From Nitrospirota bacterium (GTDB lineage Bacteria; Nitrospirota; Nitrospiria; 2-01-FULL-66-17), in contig JBMOMC010000011.1 in the NCBI GenBank assembly GCA_049325335.1, forward strand, positions 36,950 through 52,825: DNA of 15,876 bases, given 5' to 3'. Position 1 is the stretch's first letter, and every line of letters begins with the position of its first letter. Positions 2,006 to 15,648 of this stretch are shown one piece after another. The translations under genes were made by a program, and so were the position numbers. The notes beneath the pieces were generated by a model. That model had not been told where the DNA came from and searched no databases. It saw only the letters and a program-made list of their open reading frames with translations.

Positions 2006-2023
2006 TGCTAAAAGGAGGGAGTG

Positions 2024-2332
2024 ATGGGCGTCCATCGCATTACCAGCCCCGCGGCCAAGGCGTACATGCAGCGGGAGCGGATCTTGGGAGAAGGATTGTC
2101 GCTGTTGGCTGCCGCGGCGGACAAGCCGACGCTGAGTTCCGAGGCGTTGGAAGCGGCCGGAGACTTGGCCGCACAGTTGGTGCCGCACGCGCCGGGGTAC
2201 GGCGGCAAGGCGTTGCAGATCGTGGCCGCGCAGTTTTGGCGGCAAGCGAAGGTCAAGGAGAAGGCGGCGGACATGTTGTCGTTCGACGATCTGGAGAAAA
2301 AGGTCAACGCGCTGCGTCGCTTGGTTGGTTAG
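2024..2332 (+). CDS. Small alpha-helical hypothetical protein (102 aa)
   Basis: AGGAGG at 2013-2018 before ATG 2024; Ala/Leu-rich helical sequence filling the gap between glnA and the aminotransferase. Confidence 0.8.
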   Translation: MGVHRITSPAAKAYMQRERILGEGLSLLAAAADKPTLSSEALEAAGDLAAQLVPHAPGYGGKALQIVAAQFWRQAKVKEKAADMLSFDDLEKKVNALRRLVG

Positions 2333-2350
2333 GGTTGTCCCGGGGTCGTG

Positions 2351-3463
2351 ATGGAACGCGAGATTCTCCAGTATCTCGAACCATACGACCCCGGGGTGTT
2401 TCCGGCCGCGGTCACCGCGCGGTACGGGATCCCCGAATCCCGGATCGCGAACCTGGCCTCCAACGAGACGCCGTACCGGCTTCCGCGCTCGGTGGTCAAC
2501 GGCCTCGCTCGGAGTCTCGCCGAAGTTACCCGGTACCCGGACCCGTCCTACCGACGGGCCAAGGACGCGGTTGCGGCGTACGTGCGGTGTTCGCCCAAGG
2601 CCGTCAGCGTGGGCAATGGGGCGGGCGAAGTGCTCGCGACGCTGGCAGCGGTCACGCTCGAGTCGCACGCCCGCGCGATCGTGCCCATCCCGTCGTACTC
2701 GTTGTACCTGTTCGTGGCGATGGCGCAGAACGCCTCGCTCGAATTGGTACAGATGGATCCCCCCGGATTCGCGTTCGACGTGGATCGCGTCATCGATCAG
2801 GCGCGCGACGCGGCGTTGGTGCTGATCTGCTCGCCCAACAATCCGACCGGGGCCTCGGTGCCGGCCGCCGCGATCACCCGGCTGCACCAGGAGACATCTG
2901 CCGTGATTGCCGTGGATGAAGCGTATGCCGAATTCTCAGGCCGCAGCGTGCTGCCGCTGGTCAAGACCCATCCTCGGCTGGCGGTGATTCGATCGTGCTC
3001 CAAATATTTCGGGCTCGCGGGTCTTCGCGTGGGCTACGTGGTGGCGGACCCTGGGTTGATCGACCGGATGGAGCGGGTCCGGCTGCCGTTCAACGTGAAC
3101 CGCCCTGCGGTCGCGGCGCTCGAACTGGTCACGCGGCAACGCGCGTGGTTCGCGGCCCAAGCGCGCCGTATCGTGTCTGATCGCAAGGTCTTGGCCGCGG
3201 CCGTGGCGCGGGACACACGGTGCGTGGCGTTGCCCTCCGACGCCAACTTTTTGCTCATCAAACTGCCGGACGGGTTGTCGTCCGTGAGCGTGATGGACGG
3301 ACTGCTGAGTCGAGGCATTATTGTGCGCGACGTCAGCGGCATGCCGGGATTGGGCGACGGGTACTTGCGCGTGACGGTCGGTACGCCTGCCGACAACCGA
3401 CGGTTCGCGCGCGCGTTGGCCGCGTTGCCGGATACCAGAAAGGCGGGCCGATCGCGACGATGA
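2351..3463 (+). CDS. hisC: PLP-dependent class I/II aminotransferase, HisC (histidinol-phosphate aminotransferase)/CobD-like
   Basis: [39 protein letters not shown] (PLP lysine), SDANF, GIIVRD, LRVTVG; substrate not certain, GTG 2348 is an alternative start. Confidence 0.75.
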
Positions 3464-5356: not shown

Positions 5357-5967
5357 ACGCGCCGTCGGAGGTTCCCACGTTCGAGTCAGTGGCCGCGTTC
5401 CACGGCCACGTGTGCCTCGACATTGCGCTGGGGTATCGGGTTGCGACCGCGGCCATGCGCGAATTGGGGTGCGACCGGCCGCGCGACGAGGAACTGGTCG
5501 CCATTGTAGAGAACGACTCCTGTTCGGTCGACGCGGTTCAGGCCGTGACCGGATGTACCTTCGGCAAAGGCAATCTCGTGTATCACCCATACGGCAAGGC
5601 CGCGTATACCGTGATCGACCGACGCACCGGCCGTGCGGTCAGGATCTATTGTCATTTTTGGGAGGCATTCGACCGCGGCGAGGGCGTGGCATTTATTGCG
5701 TTGATGAACCGCGTGTTGGCCGGCGAGTCGTCGTCGGCCGAGCGTGAACGGTTCGGCCGTGAGATGGCCGAGATTTCTCAGCGGATCTTATCGCTACCGG
5801 AACGGGAACTGTTTTCGGTGTCTCGCGTGGAGACGCCGCCTCCGCCTTCGGCACGCATCTTTTCCTCCGCGGCGTGCGACCAATGCGGTGAATGGACTAT
5901 GGAGACCCGCCTCGCACTGATCCACGGCAGGAGACTGTGCCCCCCGTGTCGAGACGTAAGGGGTTGA
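5353..5967 (+). CDS. FmdE-family protein (formylmethanofuran dehydrogenase subunit E-like) with C-terminal zinc finger
   Basis: GTG 5353 overlaps upstream TGA; FHGHVC, ENDSCSVDAVQAVTGCTFGKGNL, GKAAYT; C-terminal CDQCGE...LCPPC. Confidence 0.9.
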   Translation: MNAPSEVPTFESVAAFHGHVCLDIALGYRVATAAMRELGCDRPRDEELVAIVENDSCSVDAVQAVTGCTFGKGNLVYHPYGKAAYTVIDRRTGRAVRIYCHFWEAFDRGEGVAFIALMNRVLAGESSSAERERFGREMAEISQRILSLPERELFSVSRVETPPPPSARIFSSAACDQCGEWTMETRLALIHGRRLCPPCRDVRG

Positions 5968-5993
5968 GCCCCGACACGTTCCGGTGTCGGGGC
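5968..5993 (+). terminator. Perfect 10-bp GC-rich hairpin right after the fmdE-like stop (possible terminator or stabiliser)
   Basis: GCCCCGACAC-GTTCCG-GTGTCGGGGC; the T run is delayed to 6002-6006. Confidence 0.55.
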
Positions 5994-6260
5994 ACTGCAC
6001 GTTTTTGAACCGCCGTCTCCGACCTTCGTTGCTCCGTTAAAAAAGAATTCGGAGGAAACCGGCATGCTGACCGGTCTTTCTCCTAACGCGAGCACCGCGC
6101 CAGGGGTTGTCGTGGTCGGCGACGCGGTGTGGCGAAACCTAGTCGCGAGAAGGAACGTACGAGCAGGCAATTCACGATATCCACACGGCATTGCATCGGA
6201 TCGCACGTTGAGTTGATCTGTGAGTCCACAAATAGTGGGTCGTCGGAAACATGAGGCAGG

Positions 6261-7649
6261 GTGGTGATGTGGTGGCCCCCGACTAACGTCTACACGGTTC
6301 TCCTAGGGATCATTACCGCGGTGGCGGTGCTGGTCGTGGTCTGCGGCGTGGCCGTTGCGATTCGGCGCGCGTTCAAACAGCGGCGGTACAGGACCAGGGA
6401 CCAACTCCGCGCCCATTACGCGCCGATTGTCGCGGCGCTCCGGCCGGGCGACGAGCCGCCTGAGTCGCTTGATCAGCCGAACAATTCGCCGGCCTGGGAG
6501 GTCATCGGGGCCGAGCTCCGAGAGGCCATCGAACGCGCGGCGAGCGTTCAAGAACGGGAGTTTCTCTCCGGCGTGTGTGGGCGACTCGGATACGTGGAGG
6601 CGCATATCCGACGGTTGTCAGACGGCCGGCCGGGCGCTCGAGCCTTAGCGGCCGATCATCTGGGCGCCATGCGGCATCGTACCGCGGTCCCAGCTCTCGC
6701 CCGCGCGCTGGATGATTCGGACCTCGACGTGCGCACCGTGTCCGCGCGCGCGTTGGGGATGATCGGCGGCGAGGACGCGTTGGGCCATCTCGTGCATCGT
6801 CTGCTGTCCGCTTCCCCCGACGAGCCGGAAATCTCGTTCCGAGTGATCAAGTCTGTTCTCATGGCTGGCGGTCCGTCGGTGGTTGCTCCTTTGGAAAACG
6901 GGTTGCTGCACCCGGTATGGCGAATTCGGAGCGCGGTCATTGATATTCTTGGACAGGTTGGAGCCGCGGAGACGGCGCCGCGTTTGGTCGAGTTGCTGTC
7001 GGACCCGGAACCCGACGTCCGCGCAAAAGTCGCGCGCGTCCTCGGTCAACTCGGTCATGGTCCGGCCGTGCCCACCCTGCAGACCGCGCTCGGGGATCCC
7101 GCGTGGGTTGTTCGGTTGCAGGCCACCCGGTCGCTCGGACTGTTGGGCGGAGCGGCCACGTCGGCGTTGCAGGATCGGCTGCTGGACACGCAGTGGCACG
7201 TTCGGGCGGCCGCGGCGGAAGCGCTTCGGCGGAGCGGATCGGACGCGTTGTGGTCAATCTGGAGCACGCTCTCGGACTGCCGGGATCGCTACGCACGCGA
7301 GCAACTGTTCGAGGAACTGCAACGCTCATCGCTCTTGCAAAAGTACATCGGGTTACTGGAAAGCCATCGCGTCGAGGAACGGACGCGGAGCGAGACCGTG
7401 GTCCAAGACTGTCTCCGCGAAGGGGTCACGAGCCTCATCATCCATTCGCTCAAAACCCACCCCAGCGCCGATGTGCGACGGCGGCTGTTGGATCTGCTGA
7501 CGCCGTACCGTCAGCCGGAGATCATTGCGGCGATCGAGGAAGTGAAAGCGAGCGACCCGGATCATGGTCTGCGACGGCTCGCCCAGGCTGTGCTGGACGG
7601 CGCGACGGTCTCCGCGCAGAGTCAGAGGAGCAACGGCCATGTGGTATGA
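6261..7649 (+). CDS. Membrane-anchored HEAT/PBS-lyase repeat protein
   Basis: N-terminal hydrophobic helix (VYTVLLGIITAVAVLVVVCGVAVAI) then RRAFKQRR; repeats such as ALDDSDLDVRTVSARALG, LLSDPEPDVRAKVARVLG, ALGDPAWVVRLQATRSLG, LLDTQWHVRAAAAEAL; start may be 6261, 6264 or 6267. Confidence 0.9.
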   Translation: MVMWWPPTNVYTVLLGIITAVAVLVVVCGVAVAIRRAFKQRRYRTRDQLRAHYAPIVAALRPGDEPPESLDQPNNSPAWEVIGAELREAIERAASVQEREFLSGVCGRLGYVEAHIRRLSDGRPGARALAADHLGAMRHRTAVPALARALDDSDLDVRTVSARALGMIGGEDALGHLVHRLLSASPDEPEISFRVIKSVLMAGGPSVVAPLENGLLHPVWRIRSAVIDILGQVGAAETAPRLVELLSDPEPDVRAKVARVLGQLGHGPAVPTLQTALGDPAWVVRLQATRSLGLLGGAATSALQDRLLDTQWHVRAAAAEALRRSGSDALWSIWSTLSDCRDRYAREQLFEELQRSSLLQKYIGLLESHRVEERTRSETVVQDCLREGVTSLIIHSLKTHPSADVRRRLLDLLTPYRQPEIIAAIEEVKASDPDHGLRRLAQAVLDGATVSAQSQRSNGHVV

Positions 7650-9096
7650 CCTCGCGGTGGAGACGATCCGGTGGTTCAACTACCTCGTCATCATATATTA
7701 TGTCGCGGCCAACGGGGTGTACGGCGCGTTTATTTGGTCGTCGTTTGGACTCACGCTGCGCCACCTTGTACGGATCCGATACGGCGGCTACCCGGCCATC
7801 GCGGCGGCGAAAACGACGCCGCCCGTCTCGGTGTTGGTCCCAGCGTACAACGAAGAAGCCAATATTGTGCAGGCCGTGTGGTCGCTGTTGCGCCTGAACT
7901 ATCCCGCGCACGAAGTCATCATCATCAACGACGGGTCGACCGACGGAACGCTCAAGCGTCTGGTGGAGGAGTTCAAACTCCGTCCGGTTGATCTCATCTA
8001 CCGGCAGCACATCCCAACCCAGCCGGTGCGCCGGTTCTATACCAGTCCGTTAATCCCGGGGCTGACCGTGCTGGACAAGCGTCACGGAGGCAAGGCCGAC
8101 GCGCTGAACGCGGGAATCAACGTCACGCGCGCTCCGTATTTCTGTTCCGTGGACTCGGACTCGATTTTGGAACCCGACGCGTTGGTTCGGTTGGTACGTC
8201 CGATCGTGGAGAGCCCGGACCCCAACGCGATTGTCGCGATCGGTGGGATTGTCCGGGTCGTAAACGGGTCGGAAGTCCACGAGGGTCGCATCAGTAAAAT
8301 CGGTCTGCCGAAAGACGCGCTCTCGATGTTTCAGATCGTCGAATACCTGCGCAGCTTTTTGGTCGGCCGGACCGGATGGGGAGCGTGGAACTCGTTGCTG
8401 GTCGTGTCGGGAGCCTTTTCGCTGCTGCAAAAGCGGGTGGTGCTTGAGGTCGGGGGCTACGACACGGACTCCGTGACCGAGGACATGGAACTGGTGCTCC
8501 GCCTCCATCGCTTCCTGCTCGCCGAGAAACGGCACTATCAGATCGTGTTCGTCCAGGACCCGATTTGTTGGACCGAAGCGCCGACGAGCCTCAGGATGTT
8601 GGCGCGACAGCGTCGGCGGTGGCACCGAGGGATGGTCGAGTCGCTGTTTGTTCATCGGGGAATGATCTTGAACCCCCGATATCGCCAGGTCGGATGGTTC
8701 GCCGTTCCGTATCACCTGTTGATCGAATCGCTGGGACCGGTGATTGAGCTCGGCGGGTATGCGGTGGTCGCGCTGTCGTATGCGATAGGTCTCGTGGACA
8801 CGCGGTTCTTGGTCCTCTTCCTGGTCCTGTCGCTGTTAGTCGGCGTGTTCTTCTCCGTCTCGGCGGTGGTCTTGGAGGAAATGAGCTACCGGCGGTATGT
8901 GCGGTGGCGGGATTTTCTTCGGCTGCTCGCATACGGGGTCCTCGAAAACTTCGGGTATCGCCAACTGTTGGCGTGGTGGCGGTTGCAGGCCCTTGCGCAA
9001 CTCTTCACCAGACGTCGGTGGGAGTACGTGCGAAAACGCGGGTTCCAGAAAAAACGCGCCCAAACCGAAACGGCCGATGGAACACAATGCGCATGA
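7639..9096 (+). CDS. Processive GT2 glycosyltransferase (PgaC/IcaA/NodC-like polysaccharide synthase)
   Basis: GAGGAG RBS before ATG 7639; N-terminal TM helix; VPAYNEE, NDGSTD, GGKADALN, VDSDS, VTEDME, QRRRW (D,D,D,QxxRW); C-terminal TM helices. Confidence 0.93.
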   Translation: MWYDLAVETIRWFNYLVIIYYVAANGVYGAFIWSSFGLTLRHLVRIRYGGYPAIAAAKTTPPVSVLVPAYNEEANIVQAVWSLLRLNYPAHEVIIINDGSTDGTLKRLVEEFKLRPVDLIYRQHIPTQPVRRFYTSPLIPGLTVLDKRHGGKADALNAGINVTRAPYFCSVDSDSILEPDALVRLVRPIVESPDPNAIVAIGGIVRVVNGSEVHEGRISKIGLPKDALSMFQIVEYLRSFLVGRTGWGAWNSLLVVSGAFSLLQKRVVLEVGGYDTDSVTEDMELVLRLHRFLLAEKRHYQIVFVQDPICWTEAPTSLRMLARQRRRWHRGMVESLFVHRGMILNPRYRQVGWFAVPYHLLIESLGPVIELGGYAVVALSYAIGLVDTRFLVLFLVLSLLVGVFFSVSAVVLEEMSYRRYVRWRDFLRLLAYGVLENFGYRQLLAWWRLQALAQLFTRRRWEYVRKRGFQKKRAQTETADGTQCA

Positions 9097-10505
9097 CACG
9101 ATCGGGATTGACGTTGGCGTGGGGGGTGATACTGCTGACCCATGGTCTCGTCATGGCGGATCGTGTGTGGGGTGGGCGGGCGGACACTGCCTATGGCGCT
9201 GGGAACGGAGGCGCAGCCGGAGGAACGATTTTGATCGCGGCTCTGGCCGACGGTGACGCGGCGATGGATCGAGGCGATTATCCCGCGGCCGTTCGGCACT
9301 ATCGCGCGGAACTCAAGCTTCATCCCGAGTCGTATGACGTCAAGTTCAAATTGGCGCGGGCGCTCGCGTTTTCGGGCCACCGCGAGGAGGCGATTGGCCT
9401 GTACACGGAGCTGCTGACCACGCGACCGACGAATTCCGATGTGTTACTGGCACGGGGACGCGTGTACACCTGGGAGAATCGCTGGCGCGAGGCCGAAGCG
9501 GACCTGACGGCGGTGACGACGCGGTTGCCCAACTATGGGGAAGCCTGGTCGGCGCTCGGCGATGTGTACCTTCGCAGCGGGCGTCCCGCGAAGGCCGTTC
9601 AGGCGTACGGCAAATGGATCGGGGCTGGTGCCCAGGACCCTCTCGCGTATATTGCGCGTGCGCGGGCGCACCGAGCGGCTGGGAACGTCGCCGCGGCCCG
9701 AGTCGACTTCGAAGCGGCGCGTGAACGCGGCGGGCCCGATGCCGAGGTTGGGGAGTATCTAGCCTCCCTTGATCCGCGCCGCCGGGATCCGGAGTCAGTG
9801 GCTCCCGACGAATATCGTTGGTTTGGGCGGCTGTCGTCAGGGATCAGCGATTTCTCTCCGGATCGCGGGACGTGGCGCAACTACAGCCTGCTTGTTCGCC
9901 GATACTGGCAACGGGCCTCGCTTGGCGTGGAGCTGCTCCGCGCGGAGCGGTTCGATCAACAGGACCAAGCCCTTGCGCTCGATGCCTACGTTGATCTGTG
10001 GCCACGTTCGTACGCGAACCTTCGCTATCAGTACTCCCGCGCCGCGGTGCTCTACCCGGACAACTCTTATCGTATCGAAGTCTTTCAAGGCGTGGGACAA
10101 GGGTGGGAATTGTCCGCAAGCTACGATCATTTGAGCTTCGACGCCAACAGCGTCGCGTTGTACGGCGCCGGGTTCGGGAAATACACGGGTAACTGGTATC
10201 TACGATGGAAGACGTTGTTCATTCCGTCTTCGGCACGATCGAGCCTCTCGCATCGTGTGCTGAGCCGATATTATTACGCGGGGAACGGCGATGATTACGT
10301 GGAGCTCAACGCAGGATTTGGCCGAGGCGGTGAATTTATCCCAGGAACCACGGTCGTTGACGCCACGAGCAGCCGCTCGGTCGGCCTCGCGTTTCAGACG
10401 TACCCGCATCCGCGTTGGGGCCTGACGTTCTCGGCGGGATATGACAGTGACCGGGATTCTTTTGTTGAACGAAGTCTGTCGGCCGGCGTACTCGCGCGGT
10501 GGTGA
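9093..10505 (+). CDS. TPR-repeat plus YaiO-like outer-membrane beta-barrel protein
   Basis: ATGA overlap with GT2 stop; signal-peptide-like N-terminus; TPR helices (PESYDVKFKLARALAFSG, PTNSDVLLARGRVYTW, PNYGEAWSALGDVY); aromatic-rich beta strands ending in W; family name recalled, not searched. Confidence 0.8.
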   Translation: MTRSGLTLAWGVILLTHGLVMADRVWGGRADTAYGAGNGGAAGGTILIAALADGDAAMDRGDYPAAVRHYRAELKLHPESYDVKFKLARALAFSGHREEAIGLYTELLTTRPTNSDVLLARGRVYTWENRWREAEADLTAVTTRLPNYGEAWSALGDVYLRSGRPAKAVQAYGKWIGAGAQDPLAYIARARAHRAAGNVAAARVDFEAARERGGPDAEVGEYLASLDPRRRDPESVAPDEYRWFGRLSSGISDFSPDRGTWRNYSLLVRRYWQRASLGVELLRAERFDQQDQALALDAYVDLWPRSYANLRYQYSRAAVLYPDNSYRIEVFQGVGQGWELSASYDHLSFDANSVALYGAGFGKYTGNWYLRWKTLFIPSSARSSLSHRVLSRYYYAGNGDDYVELNAGFGRGGEFIPGTTVVDATSSRSVGLAFQTYPHPRWGLTFSAGYDSDRDSFVERSLSAGVLARW

Positions 10506-10580
10506 TGCGCGGTTGGCGGCATGCCGTCCGCTCTGGATCTCCTGTGAGCCGACCCAGCTAGACAGCGCGCAAACCACCCC

Positions 10581-12620
10581 ATGAACACCAGGATCACGGA
10601 AGATCCGAGTGCCTCGTTTGTCGGCAGGGTCGGTCGCTGGACGTCCCTGTTCGTCACGCTCTCTATGGCGCTACTGATCGCCCTCCTTGCCGCGCGAGTG
10701 ATGGAACTGCTGTACGTCCTCATGAAACACGGCGCCCCCTCGGATCTGTCGAACGTGCTCCCGCACGCCTTGCTGTTCGATCTCGCGTGGTTTCTCAAAC
10801 TCCTTGCCGTATTCGTTGTTCCGTTTCTCATTGTCTGTTTCGCGCTGCGCTCCGCGACCGCGCGGTATTGGGCGTACGGCGTCGTGGGATCCGTGGTGAT
10901 TTTCTCGTATACCCTCCTGATTAAGTACTTCACCACGGCACGGGTTCCATTGGGCGCCGATCTCTTTGCGTACTCAGTGCCGGAGATTACGGGCATCATT
11001 CGGACGAGTGCCGCGATCGACGCATTCACCGTGGGCCTGGTGGCTATCCCGCTCCTGCTCTTCTGGGGATCCCTTGCGTGGTTGCGTGTCAGGAAACCCG
11101 TGTCACCCGGGTATGCCGCGGTCATTGTGGGACTCGGCTGGGCGCTGCACGGGACGTCCATTGCGGCACCGGTTCCGACCGCATTCGAGACGGAGTTTTC
11201 CTACAATCTCGCGTCGAACAAGATGGCGGTGTTTGCCGGAGAGTCGTATGCCTACGTTGTCCGGGCCGTGGTCGGCGACAGGCCGTCGGAGTCCGACCCG
11301 ACTACCCGGTCACCCGGTCGCGTGGCCCGATTGACGTATGTGAATCCCGAGTATCCGTTCTTGCGTCAGGAGACCACTCCTGACGTACTCGGCGAATTTT
11401 TCAATCTGGACCCCGCCAAACCGCCCAATGTGGTCGTTCTCCTCGTGGAGGGATTGGGCAAGGCCTTCAGCGGCCCGAACGCGTATTTAGAGAGTTTTAC
11501 CCCGTTCCTGGACGAGCTGGCCGGGAAGAGCCTGTATTGGGAAAATTTCCTGGCATCACAAGGTCGGACTTTCGCGGTGCTGCCGTCGGTGTTGGCCTCA
11601 TTGCCCTACGGAGAGCAGGGCTTTAATGCGTTCGGCAAAAATATGCCGAACCATCACTCGTTACTAAGCGTTCTGAAGCACAACGGCTATCGGACAAAGT
11701 TCTATTCCGGTTCGGATCAGGCGTTCGATTTGGATAATCAACGACTCTTTATCGCGCGTCAGCGCGTAGACGTGGTGGTGACGGAGCAGGACTTTGACGC
11801 GAGGTACAACAAGAACCCGGACACGGGGTGGGGGTACCCTGACCGGGAACTGCTGCGGAAAGCCCTAGAGGTGGAACAACGCGATTTCAAAGAACCGTAT
11901 GTATCGGTTCTTCAGACCATGAGCATGCATTCGCCTTTTTTGGTGCCGGACCAAGACTCGTATATGAAGCTGTTCGAGGAGCGGATGAACCATTTGGGTC
12001 TTGACGAGGCCGCGAAACAGCGGCATCGCGCGGACGCGAACATCTATGCCGCGATCCTCTACGCCGACGACGCGCTACGGCACTTTTTCGACGAATACCA
12101 AAAGCTGCCGGCATACGGCAATACGATCTTCATCCTGACCGGTGATCACCGGTTGCCGGAAATTCCGATGTCGACCAAAATCGACCGGTTCCATGTACCG
12201 TTGATCATCTTTTCGCCGCTGCTCAAGCGGGCGGTCCACTTCGAGTCGATTTCCTCGCACCTAGACATTACGCCGTCGCTGTTGGCGTTGTTTCGGGAAC
12301 GATTCGATCTTCGTACGCCGTCGACCGTGGCGTGGGTCGGGTCGGGACTGGATACCGACCCGACGTTCCGCAACATTCACGCGTATCCGCTCAAACACAC
12401 CAAGAACAATTTGATCGATTTTATCTCGGGCATGTCCTTCATCGATCAAGACGTGTTGTTCACGGTGAGTAAACACATGGACTTGGAGCCGACGAAAAAC
12501 GATCGGGAGAAGAACCGGTTGACGGCGGAGTTTGATGATTACAAATCGCGAAACAACCAGTTCATTCGCGATTTAAAACTGATTCCCGATACCCACTACG
12601 AACAGTTCTACTCCCGGTAG
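10581..12620 (+). CDS. LtaS/MdoB(OpgB)-type membrane phosphotransferase (alkaline phosphatase superfamily)
   Basis: About 5 N-terminal TM helices; PNVVVLLVEG (metal Glu), TPFLDELA, QGRTF (nucleophile Thr), SMHSPF, YADDAL, TIFILTGDH, HVPLII, SHLDITPSLL; no CxPxR sulfatase motif. Confidence 0.85.
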   Translation: MNTRITEDPSASFVGRVGRWTSLFVTLSMALLIALLAARVMELLYVLMKHGAPSDLSNVLPHALLFDLAWFLKLLAVFVVPFLIVCFALRSATARYWAYGVVGSVVIFSYTLLIKYFTTARVPLGADLFAYSVPEITGIIRTSAAIDAFTVGLVAIPLLLFWGSLAWLRVRKPVSPGYAAVIVGLGWALHGTSIAAPVPTAFETEFSYNLASNKMAVFAGESYAYVVRAVVGDRPSESDPTTRSPGRVARLTYVNPEYPFLRQETTPDVLGEFFNLDPAKPPNVVVLLVEGLGKAFSGPNAYLESFTPFLDELAGKSLYWENFLASQGRTFAVLPSVLASLPYGEQGFNAFGKNMPNHHSLLSVLKHNGYRTKFYSGSDQAFDLDNQRLFIARQRVDVVVTEQDFDARYNKNPDTGWGYPDRELLRKALEVEQRDFKEPYVSVLQTMSMHSPFLVPDQDSYMKLFEERMNHLGLDEAAKQRHRADANIYAAILYADDALRHFFDEYQKLPAYGNTIFILTGDHRLPEIPMSTKIDRFHVPLIIFSPLLKRAVHFESISSHLDITPSLLALFRERFDLRTPSTVAWVGSGLDTDPTFRNIHAYPLKHTKNNLIDFISGMSFIDQDVLFTVSKHMDLEPTKNDREKNRLTAEFDDYKSRNNQFIRDLKLIPDTHYEQFYSR

Positions 12621-12728
12621 GTTCTCGCACGATCCCCGAACGGGTTGCAGTTTTCTCCGAGTTGGTAGAAGATGGGGACCTCAACGCCCGTGACCACACA
12701 CGCCTCACACTCCAACGAGCCATCCGCG

Positions 12729-13106
12729 ATGGGCCACAAGCCGGTCCCGGTGCCTGCGCCGAGGCGGTTACTCCGAGCTCTTAGATTCTCCTGGGCGGGC
12801 CTTGCGGCCGCGTGGCGGAGCGAGTGGGCGTTTCGCGTGGACGTGATAGTGTTCCTGGTCGGCGCGCCGGCTGCGCTTTGGCTTGGACACACCGGCCTTG
12901 AACGCGCGGCGCTGATCGCGAGTTTATTCCTGGTGTTGATCGCGGAGTTGGTGAACACGGCGATTGAGGCGGTAGTGGACCGTATCGGGCCGGATCGCCA
13001 CGCGCTCTCAAAAAAGGCCAAGGACGTGGGATCAGCCGTGGTGTTCCTGGCTCTTTTGAACGCCGGCGTGGTTTGGGTGCTGATTCTGTTCTCGCGGCTG
13101 TCCTAA
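12729..13106 (+). CDS. dgkA: Prokaryotic diacylglycerol kinase
   Basis: RLLRALRFSWAGL...EWAFR, ELVNTAIEAVVDRIG, HALSKKAKDVGSA; three hydrophobic segments; alternative start 12672. Confidence 0.92.
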   Translation: MGHKPVPVPAPRRLLRALRFSWAGLAAAWRSEWAFRVDVIVFLVGAPAALWLGHTGLERAALIASLFLVLIAELVNTAIEAVVDRIGPDRHALSKKAKDVGSAVVFLALLNAGVVWVLILFSRLS

Positions 13107-13169: not shown

Positions 13170-13613
13170 ATGTTCCAAGACTTCAAAGCATTCGTCTTGC
13201 GCGGCAACGTGTTGGACATGGCGGTCGGGATCATCATCGGCGCCGCGTTCGGCAAGATCGTCACGTCCCTGGTCAACGATGTTCTGATGCCGCCGATCGG
13301 ACTGATAGTCGGTCGTGTGAACTTTTCGGACCTTTTCATCAACTTGTCTGACACGGCGTATCCCAGTGTGGACGCGGCCAAGGCCGCTGGCGCGCCGACG
13401 CTCAACTACGGCCTGTTCATCAACACCATGGTGGATTTTCTGATCGTGGCCGCGGTGATCTTTGTCATGGTCAAGCAGTTCGCCCGGCTGCAACGCCAGC
13501 CCGAACCGCCGTCAGCGGTCCCAACCACCAAAGCCTGCCCGCACTGCATCTCGACGATTCCGATTCAGGCCACGCGCTGCCCCAATTGCACTTCGGAGCT
13601 GAGGGCTGCGTAG
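13170..13613 (+). CDS. mscL: Large-conductance mechanosensitive channel with C-terminal zinc ribbon
   Basis: [63 protein letters not shown]; tail CPHC-x10-CPNC. Confidence 0.96.
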
Positions 13614-14817: not shown

Positions 14818-15099
14818 TTATGCGGTGCGCTTGAAGGTGATCCGGGGCTTGAGTCCAGCGGTCGCAGCCATGTCGACGAGCGTGTCGAGTGAGAACAGGT
14901 TGATGCGGCCGCGCATCAGATCAGAAATGCGGGGCTGTGTGACGCCGAACCGCTCAGCCGCTTCGCGCTGCGTCCAACCCGAGCGTCGGATCATCTCTGT
15001 CAGTTCGATCATCAAGTCTGAGCGTGCGCGCATGCTCGCGGCCGCCTGCGGCGTGTCTTCAATCGCGTCCCAGACGCTTGCAAAGCGTTTGCTTTTCAT
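14818..15099 (-). CDS. XRE-family HTH protein, HigA-like antitoxin
   Basis: AGGAG RBS at 15108-15104; FASVWDAIEDTP...MRARSDLM...WTQREAAERFGVTQPRISDLMRGRINLFSLDTLVDM. Confidence 0.88.
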   Translation of the reverse strand: MKSKRFASVWDAIEDTPQAAASMRARSDLMIELTEMIRRSGWTQREAAERFGVTQPRISDLMRGRINLFSLDTLVDMAATAGLKPRITFKRTA

Positions 15100-15134
15100 C
15101 GGACTCCTGTGCCAACAAACGAGACCGGTGTCAT
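15096..15134 (-). pseudogene. Probable remnant of an internally deleted RelE/HigB (Gp49-like) toxin gene: 12-codon ORF MTPVSFVGTGVR
   Basis: ATG ACA CCG GTC TCG TTT GTT GGC ACA GGA GTC CGA TGA; its TGA overlaps the antitoxin ATG; resembles the MKPxxFxG start of Gp49-like toxins. Confidence 0.55.
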
Positions 15135-15147
15135 CGTGTGTCACATG

Positions 15148-15163
15148 ATACAAGTTCTTGTAT
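15148..15163. promoter_or_regulatory. Palindromic operator, probably bound by the XRE antitoxin
   Basis: Perfect inverted repeat ATACAAG-TT-CTTGTAT, overlapping a minus-strand TATCAT -10-like hexamer (15150-15145). Confidence 0.65.
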
Positions 15164-15267
15164 GCCTGTGAAAGCCCCACTTAGGGGCGAACAATGGGGG
15201 GGGGCGGATCTATCCGAATCACGCGGAGGCGACGTCCGGGTCACGACGCCTTCACAGCGGGTCGAAG

Positions 15268-15297
15268 TTGAACCAATAGCGCTTACGAGCTTATACT
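15268..15297 (+). promoter_or_regulatory. Possible sigma70 promoter for the MNT-HEPN pair
   Basis: TTGAAC (15268-15273), 18-nt spacer, TATACT (15292-15297). Confidence 0.45.
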
Positions 15298-15345
15298 AGC
15301 GATCAGTTCTCTCCGGTATTTGTCGTCCAAGAAGGGAGCGGTCAT

Positions 15346-15648
15346 ATGAGGCTCCAAATTCCGATTGATCGTGCACAGATCGAAGCGTTCTGCCGGAAGT
15401 GGAAGATCGCGGAGTTTGCATTCTTCGGGTCCGTTCTGCGGGACGTTTTTCGTCCGGACAGCGACGTGGACGTCCTGGTCACCTTCGCAGACGACGCGCA
15501 CTGGAGCTCGTACGAGTGGGTCGACATGATCGATGAACTCGAACGTCTCTTCGGTCGGAAGGTCGATCTGGTGTCGAGCCGGGGTCTCCGGAATCCATTT
15601 CGTCGTCGTGCCATCCTGAGTTCACCACAAGTCCTCTATGCCGCCTGA
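15346..15648 (+). CDS. Minimal nucleotidyltransferase (MNT) antitoxin
   Basis: FFGSVLRDVFRPDSDVDVLV (GS-x10-DxD), ELERLFGRKVDLV, NPFRRRAIL; GGAG RBS upstream. Confidence 0.92.
   Translation: MRLQIPIDRAQIEAFCRKWKIAEFAFFGSVLRDVFRPDSDVDVLVTFADDAHWSSYEWVDMIDELERLFGRKVDLVSSRGLRNPFRRRAILSSPQVLYAA

Follow-up and report, generated by a model that had tools for sequence, protein, structure and literature searches.

What does a locus make that joins a glycosyltransferase of the GT2 family to a HEAT-repeat protein, an outer-membrane barrel of the YaiO family and an LtaS-like lipid head-group transferase? The question is raised by a 15,876-nt stretch of DNA (the window) from Nitrospirota bacterium 2-01-FULL-66-17 (GCA_049325335.1, contig JBMOMC010000011.1, positions 36,950-52,825 of the forward strand), in which a first-pass annotation had described these four genes and the following dgkA as one candidate polysaccharide system. 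Our analysis showed that the unit consists of four genes, not five. We consider it probable that they form a cassette for the synthesis, decoration and export of a cell-surface polysaccharide. The chromosomal slot in which they lie is occupied by bcsA-bcsG in relatives.

The first gene (6261-7649, + strand) encodes a membrane-anchored HEAT-repeat protein of 462 aa (HEAT_2, E 1.7e-38), the predicted synthase partner. The second (7639-9096, +) encodes a GT2 glycosyltransferase of 485 aa (P0002; GT2 Pfam, E 1e-22) with processive-synthase motifs, the third (9093-10505, +) a likely exporter of 470 aa with a TPR domain and a YaiO-family barrel (TIGR04390, 127 bits), and the fourth (10581-12620, +) an LtaS/OpgB-like membrane phosphotransferase of 679 aa (P0004; Sulfatase, E 6.8e-33) that is likely to decorate the polymer. 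The first-pass picture of five co-oriented open reading frames (ORFs) was borne out, its domain calls held in Pfam and NCBIfam, and both overlaps that it reported are present in the sequence, namely 11 bp between the HEAT and GT2 genes (7639-7649) and the ATGA shared by the GT2 and barrel genes (9093-9096). The absence of deacetylase, glycoside-hydrolase and PilZ domains that it noted also agrees with our Pfam scan, which matched no such family in the five locus proteins. A sigma-54 pattern was searched for in 5901-6270 and was not found. An 8,219-bp read contig covers 5038-13256, including both cassette junctions, with 0 differences; the run is possibly the source sample and hence not independent. 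A run from a second study matches parts of the GT2 and transferase genes, and of the genes around them, over short identical stretches; these attest presence, not linkage.

The GT2 family profile matched 66/301 (22%) of the Bacteroidota, 13/351 (4%) of the Pseudomonadota and 25/251 (10%) of the Bacillota genomes sampled, the phylum names being taken from the record titles of the centre loci. Gene neighbourhoods were scored for 60 of 70 Bacteroidota, 13 of 13 Pseudomonadota and 21 of 25 Bacillota matches; three Bacteroidota matches near contig ends, seven lower-ranked Bacteroidota matches and four Bacillota matches were left out. To these were added 80 metagenome loci and 12 of 14 plasmid matches (11 scored, one GT2 being split). 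A HEAT gene lies directly upstream of the GT2 gene or is fused to it in 59/60 Bacteroidota, 13/13 Pseudomonadota, 21/21 Bacillota, 58/61 metagenome and 11/11 plasmid loci. Within the phylum of the window, the HEAT gene is directly upstream in 10 of 17 loci and within 7 kb in all 17. The pair is also found in annotated records of Mesorhizobium, Bacteroides, Erythrobacter, Deinococcus, Planococcus and three haloarchaea, and natural HEAT-GT2 fusion proteins exist among relatives. A contig search with the single GT2 protein returned 12 loci, approximately half of them weak, unrelated GT2s. Beyond these partners, clustering of the neighbouring genes yielded only small groups: a protein without a Pfam match (547 aa in L083:6610-8253) that stands beside GT2 in 14 loci of three phyla, a CE4 deacetylase (5 loci), and DUF4838, epimerase and glmS groups of 4 loci each. 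The neighbourhood survey of the five genes that the first-pass annotation had proposed thus finds the HEAT-GT2 pair to be near-invariant, the barrel to be present in diderms and the transferase to be optional, with dgkA unlinked.

The GT2 protein carries D98, D172-x-D174, T280-E-D282 and Q324-R-R-R-W328, and the QxxRW motif is kept in 147 of the 150 best family representatives. Its structure model (pLDDT 94.4) was searched with Foldseek, and ranks 1-13 are all hyaluronan synthases (E down to 2.7e-16, TM-score 0.49-0.65). The protein is 27% identical to Escherichia coli PgaC (over 282 aa), 23% to BcsA and 24% to YaiP, and its best NCBIfam match, TIGR03937 (PgaC/IcaA), stays under the cut-off (129 versus 422 bits). 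The phylogeny suggested by the first-pass annotation was obtained with quick trees throughout. All 26 HEAT-linked GT2s in a 32-row tree fall on one side of a branch (SH-aLRT 97), with PgaC, YaiP and BcsA on the other; a 68-row tree gives the same split, but NfrB and one weak GT2 are misplaced on long branches. The HEAT-linked enzymes therefore form a clade of their own. The first-pass reading of a processive GT2 and a TPR/beta-barrel exporter is supported, as these components co-occur and are fused elsewhere. The GT2 is a membrane enzyme with the D,D,D,QxxRW signature and a synthase fold, and its polymerizing activity is a prediction from sequence and model. Its substrate is most likely UDP-N-acetylglucosamine (UDP-GlcNAc), because the best match is PgaC-like, glmS and a nucleotidyltransferase gene adjoin one haloarchaeal copy, and a CE4 deacetylase forms a five-locus cluster. 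Another copy is flanked by a nucleotide-sugar dehydrogenase and epimerases, and because the flanking sugar genes differ between copies, the products may differ by lineage.

A second HEAT-GT2 pair occurs genus-wide (L192:6465-9277 on contig C43 of the window genome, G000, and L021-L023 in three congeners, G001-G003), and no barrel was found near it. Its GT2, which lies on a long branch inside the subclade of the window GT2, has lost DxD, TED and QxxRW, as seen in the G002 and G003 copies. This pair looks like a retained pseudo-synthase, judging from its sequence.

The first-pass annotation had remarked on the absence of a co-polymerase. No recognizable one is encoded, as it stated, yet in functional terms the remark is probably wrong, and the HEAT protein would be the second synthase subunit that was thought to be missing. 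This protein has a single N-terminal transmembrane (TM) helix (residues 13-31) followed by a basic stretch, and more K/R follow the helix than precede it in 105 of 108 aligned HEAT rows. Under the positive-inside rule, this places the repeats in the cytoplasm. The predicted HEAT-GT2 complex scored 0.78, compared with 0.00 for the best control, with at least 92% contact agreement between runs and a partner pLDDT of at least 80. The mark for a complex was reached by 116/157 solved pairs and by 2/215 mismatched pairs, counts that are only rough with self-made alignments. In the model, HEAT residues 10-36 contact GT2 residues 389-430, and the repeats contact residues 41-60, 115-137 and 189-195, so that the protein is predicted to pack on both the TM helices and the cytoplasmic face of the synthase. 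The structure prediction, likewise proposed in the first pass, supports binding of HEAT to the synthase; to our knowledge, no such complex has been solved.

A feature of the family that the first-pass annotation had missed is a phospho-receiver domain encoded upstream, present in 50/58 Bacteroidota, 11/12 Pseudomonadota, 13/20 Bacillota, 31/38 metagenome and 6/11 plasmid loci and in 1/16 loci of the phylum of the window. The window copy has no receiver, and its GT2 belongs to a supported subclade of mostly receiver-less loci. A C-terminal extension of HEAT is confined to receiver-less loci (5/5, versus 20/93 receiver-less among loci without the extension); its carriers are a single clade, and nothing is drawn from it.

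The barrel protein scores over the cut-off with both TIGR04390 (127 versus 32 bits) and PF19413 (97.2 versus 23.9 bits). Its structure model consists of TPR helices and 14 strands, and Foldseek places BcsC at the top (E 8.9e-10) and PelB at rank 13. A TPR domain is attached to the barrel in the window copy and in many other copies. A YaiO barrel lies within 6.5 kb of GT2 in 51/57 Bacteroidota, 11/11 Pseudomonadota, 13/22 metagenome and 0/19 Bacillota loci. It is this diderm-only pattern, together with the gene layout, that makes the barrel a likely polysaccharide exporter; a shared fold by itself shows no function. Two observations on related barrels may be recorded here. Single ORFs joining an inner-membrane GT2 to a YaiO-like barrel (P0011, P0023, P0054, L117:8968-11103 and similar metagenome loci) are topologically odd, and may reflect read-through or assembly error. 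Moreover, four loci of another class within the phylum of the window (L071, L072, L075 and L076) combine YaiO barrels with a different GT2 clade and have no HEAT gene.

The transferase P0004 comprises N-terminal TM helices and a sulfatase-fold domain in which E290, T330, H450, D522 and H523 align with the active site of LtaS. It scores far under the NCBIfam cut-offs for LtaS (NF053595, 41.6 versus 970 bits) and OpgB (31.4 versus 572 bits). Of the 301 genomes in the Bacteroidota sample, 23 encode a close homologue, and 22 of these also have the GT2. Twenty of the 24 Bacteroidota matches are fused to the GT2 or lie within approximately 6 kb of it; the four exceptions are a genome without GT2, a second copy, a match that lies on a different contig from the GT2 and a match located at contig ends. 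All six matches in the phylum of the window are inside the GT2 locus. Furthermore, GT2-sulfatase fusions form four representative clusters that are 30-41% identical to P0004, and the fusion was present in four fetched loci. Where present, the transferase is thus tied to the synthase, in support of the first-pass view that a lipid head-group transferase is part of the system. Some LtaS-like partners (L283:8913-11339 and L098:5799-8345) bear a C-terminal TPR domain, a possible tether to the export path.

The position of the cassette in the chromosome is the second point that the first-pass annotation had missed. Nucleotide similarity to the closest congener, G001, ends at 6132 and restarts at 12639, so that the replaced interval is 6133-12638. 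All three congeners share the arrangement fmdE-[slot]-dgkA-mscL. In G001 and G002, the slot is filled by a BcsA with a PilZ domain and by BcsG; in G003, it is filled by BcsA together with a small and a galactose-oxidase-like protein. In a relative of another genus (G004), the order is bcsA-bcsG-dgkA, and the first two products are 37% and 31% identical to those of E. coli. Among the four relatives in which the slot was read (G005, which gave no dgkA match, and G006 are left out of these counts), bcsA is present in 4/4 and bcsG in 3/4. Searches with tblastn using BcsA and BcsG of the congeners found no orthologue in the window genome (99% complete), and G001-G003 have no close relative of the window GT2 (best E 1e-44 to 1e-49). 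We infer that bcsA-bcsG is ancestral and that the cassette replaced it in place. A related contig of the run that gave the 8,219-bp contig joins 6098 to 12820 across other sequence (a 4.7-kb insert, depth 33). In the slots of three loci (L187:6015-10608, L188:4492-8625 and L190:3076-7246), bcsA-bcsG was seen without bcsB or bcsC, genes for which the rest of these genomes was not searched. The galactose-oxidase-like gene that takes the place of bcsG in G003 recalls the cslA-glxA pair of Streptomyces.

Several points weigh against this reading of the locus. A strict hydropathy scan finds just two TM segments in the GT2, so that its product could be short, and rank 14 of the Foldseek search, ahead of BcsA and the chitin synthases, is the non-processive archaeal mannosyltransferase PcManGT. 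The barrel has a TM-score of just 0.35 against BcsC, and its best VIA-align matches, Omp33 (Z 20.0, rmsd 2.6, 191 aligned), CymA (Z 19.6, rmsd 3.3, 227 aligned) and OmpG, are general or uptake porins. The transferase is optional, being present in 15/57 Bacteroidota, 1/11 Pseudomonadota, 0/19 Bacillota, 0/22 metagenome and 5/15 own-phylum loci, and the window genome has both pgsA and psd, so that its own head-group donor is not fixed. The scoring profiles were built from the surveyed loci themselves, and related genomes are not independent, which makes the survey counts descriptions rather than tests. Finally, a swap within one slot does not prove equal function, and a polymer product is a prediction for every member of the family.

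Some of these points recur in the alternative that survives best, in which the GT2 product is a short or lipid-linked oligosaccharide, similar to NodC products or periplasmic glucans, that is decorated by an OpgB-like enzyme and either remains periplasmic or leaves by diffusion via the barrel. Such a product would suit the scarcity of strongly hydrophobic segments in the GT2, the weak NCBIfam matches of the GT2 to NodC and of the transferase to OpgB, and the likeness of the barrel to the oligosaccharide porin CymA. However, hyaluronan synthases rank above all other folds, the barrel bears a TPR domain in the window and in many other copies, and the HEAT-GT2 pair occurs in monoderms and haloarchaea, which have no periplasm. 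We therefore regard the oligosaccharide as unlikely.

Very unlikely, in our view, is a Slam-like protein translocon accompanied by a GT2 that glycosylates a surface protein or lipid. TPR plus a 14-strand barrel is indeed the layout of Slam, and Pfam TPR_Slam matches with an E-value of 1.3e-6, but this match is under the cut-off (29.2 versus 35.2) and confined to the TPR part. The neighbour clusters contained no conserved cargo family, and the GT2 keeps the motifs and the fold of a polymerase. The matches listed by the fold searches do not include Slam.

Slightly less credible again is a lipoteichoic acid (LTA)-like poly(glycerol phosphate) built on a GT2-made glycolipid anchor, for which LtaS is among the best NCBIfam and PDB sequence matches, pgsA is present in the window genome and dgkA adjoins. 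Most GT2 loci have no transferase, and the profile of the P0004 family shows a deletion of the S-x-N-H segment that follows GDH in LtaS. Motif spacing equates this segment with the second GroP site (Lm S486/N488/H489), which LtaS needs for polymerization according to the excerpt of PMC4192460. Given this deletion, the transferase looks, from its sequence, like a single-transfer enzyme. Among 10 transferase carriers checked, psd is over the cut-off in 10/10 and pgsA in 4/10, and 6/7 of the Bacteroidota carriers are without pgsA over the cut-off. Because every carrier checked has psd and most are without pgsA over the cut-off, phosphatidylethanolamine (PE) is favoured as the donor over phosphatidylglycerol, which could come by another route. 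The first-pass annotation had left the decoration as phosphoglycerol or phosphoethanolamine; in the decorated-polysaccharide reading that we prefer, the transferred group is reasonably likely to be phosphoethanolamine, and phosphoglycerol is a clearly weaker candidate, though a possible one.

The weakest alternative, namely that all five genes are one co-inherited dedicated system, as the first-pass annotation had it, draws on the co-orientation, on the 51-bp gap before dgkA (12672-13106, +; 144 aa; DAGK_prokar, E 1.1e-33; translation may instead begin at a second in-frame ATG at 12729) and on the fitting chemistry of transferases that free diacylglycerol (DAG), but it is already contradicted, because dgkA is a single-copy gene syntenic with its flanking genes in 4/4 relatives without the cassette, is distant from the module in 5/5 other transferase-bearing genomes (Pfam search) and is near GT2 in 0/205 other loci scored (with a profile built from the DgkA of its own family only). 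Resident and outside the cassette, dgkA would suit either occupant of the slot, since the LtaS-like transferase would release DAG, as BcsG does from PE in the excerpt of PMC11379886.

Downstream of dgkA, a sixth co-oriented gene that the first-pass annotation did not include, mscL (13170-13613, +), encodes a C-terminal CxxC...CxxC zinc-ribbon tail (weak DZR match) that is kept in the congeners. Elsewhere in the window, at 2021-3463, a 103-aa ORF (no Pfam match) and a class I/II aminotransferase gene lie between glnA and a gene for a GAF-AAA-HTH sigma-54 activator; G001 has both, and the aligned stretch of G002 and G003 has neither. Small ORFs at 14818-15648 resemble, by eye, an HTH antitoxin and an MNT-type nucleotidyltransferase.

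On the four-gene reading, the cassette might work as follows. The GT2 would polymerize a nucleotide sugar (UDP-GlcNAc being the most likely one) and move the chain across the inner membrane. HEAT would bind the synthase, with its single TM helix against GT2 helix 388-417 and its repeats gripping the cytoplasmic face, in the partner or activator role that PgaD, the BcsB anchor or PilZ has elsewhere. Most relatives would use HEAT to relay the signal of a phospho-receiver; the window copy belongs to a receiver-less subclade. In the periplasm, the LtaS-like enzyme may take a phospholipid head group via Thr330 and add it to the chain, freeing DAG. Export would proceed through the 14-strand barrel, to which the TPR domain would lead the chain, and DAG would be recycled by the resident DgkA, as would have been the case with BcsG.

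More tentatively, at somewhat less than even chances, the locus may represent a widespread synthase class with an obligatory HEAT subunit, usually with a phosphorelay in place of cyclic di-GMP, and with an LtaS-fold enzyme that is unrelated to BcsG and independently became a phosphoethanolamine transferase; its cassette would have displaced a phosphoethanolamine-cellulose module here. The class would extend over Bacteroidota, Pseudomonadota, Bacillota, Deinococcus and haloarchaea. Known synthase-dependent polymers are a handful (cellulose, poly-N-acetylglucosamine, alginate, Pel, NGR and hyaluronan), and most bacterial ones are switched by cyclic di-GMP. If the proposal is correct, this list would gain a new polymer and synthases a new kind of partner, the orphan YaiO barrels would have a role, head-group decoration would have a second route, and one zwitterionic matrix polymer would have been exchanged for another at the same slot. 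What the window contributes to this picture is a bcsA-bcsG module replaced in place, the finding that dgkA is not a member, the test of the donor, and a copy that has no receiver. That copy is also convenient to test, being compact and receiver-less, with the cellulose genes in the slot of its relatives as natural controls. In the literature searched, which did not extend to subscription papers and supplements (gene tables), we found neither a description nor a product of a HEAT-GT2-YaiO system, in line with the first-pass statement that no defined product is known; three papers (PMC12419801, PMC3684757 and PMC9950754) are, in their excerpts, unrelated to the locus.

A comparison with known systems further defines the locus. 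Like class I hyaluronan synthases, the closest solved folds, the window GT2 is a predicted membrane synthase, but identity to them is 15-18%; hyaluronan synthase works alone, whereas the window-type GT2 is almost never found without HEAT. The yaiS-yaiP-yaiX-yaiO locus of E. coli, itself uncharacterized, also has a YaiO-family barrel beside a GT2; however, YaiP falls outside the clade and has no QxxRW in K-12, and that locus encodes a deacetylase and an acyltransferase and no HEAT. The metal ligands and catalytic Thr of the transferase align with those of the LtaS proteins of Staphylococcus aureus and Bacillus subtilis, whereas its scores far below the LtaS and OpgB cut-offs, the missing S-x-N-H, the many carriers without pgsA and the GT2 or TPR fusions in relatives set it apart from LtaS, LtaP and OpgB (MdoB). 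Activation by a receiver has a precedent in Myxococcus, where the single-domain receiver EpsW activates polysaccharide synthesis by direct contact with EpsZ (PMC12802240, excerpt), but this is a Wzx/Wzy pathway with a phosphoglycosyl transferase as the target, and the window copy has no receiver. The name of Xanthomonas xagABCD was considered and set aside from its description: in the excerpts available, which draw on the XagB-like Sfz2 for the Xag/Sfz-Sfb group, no HEAT or YaiO component is described, the GT2 has BcsB-like and hydrolase neighbours, and Sfz2 has an EpsE-like N-terminal domain, a domain that Pfam does not find in the window GT2.

Two further parallels are Pga and Bcs. With PgaABCD/IcaADBC, which make poly-beta-1,6-N-acetylglucosamine, the locus shares a small membrane GT2 with D,D,D,QxxRW, a TPR/barrel exporter and a membrane partner of the synthase. 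Unlike in those systems, its GT2 forms a separate clade under the TIGR03937 cut-off, and HEAT, the YaiO barrel and the LtaS-like modifier stand where no match to PgaD or PgaB/IcaB was found among the window proteins (Pfam, BLAST). With the type II phosphoethanolamine-cellulose system BcsA/BcsC/BcsG of E. coli, it shares a synthase joined to a DAG-freeing head-group transferase (PMC11379886, excerpt), BcsC as the top fold of the barrel, and the slot itself. The window contains no PilZ, BcsB, BcsZ or BcsG-family (PF11658) protein, and neither BLAST nor Pfam relates its transferase to BcsG, so that the likeness is one of analogy. The locus would work like both Pga and Bcs, and is a member of neither.

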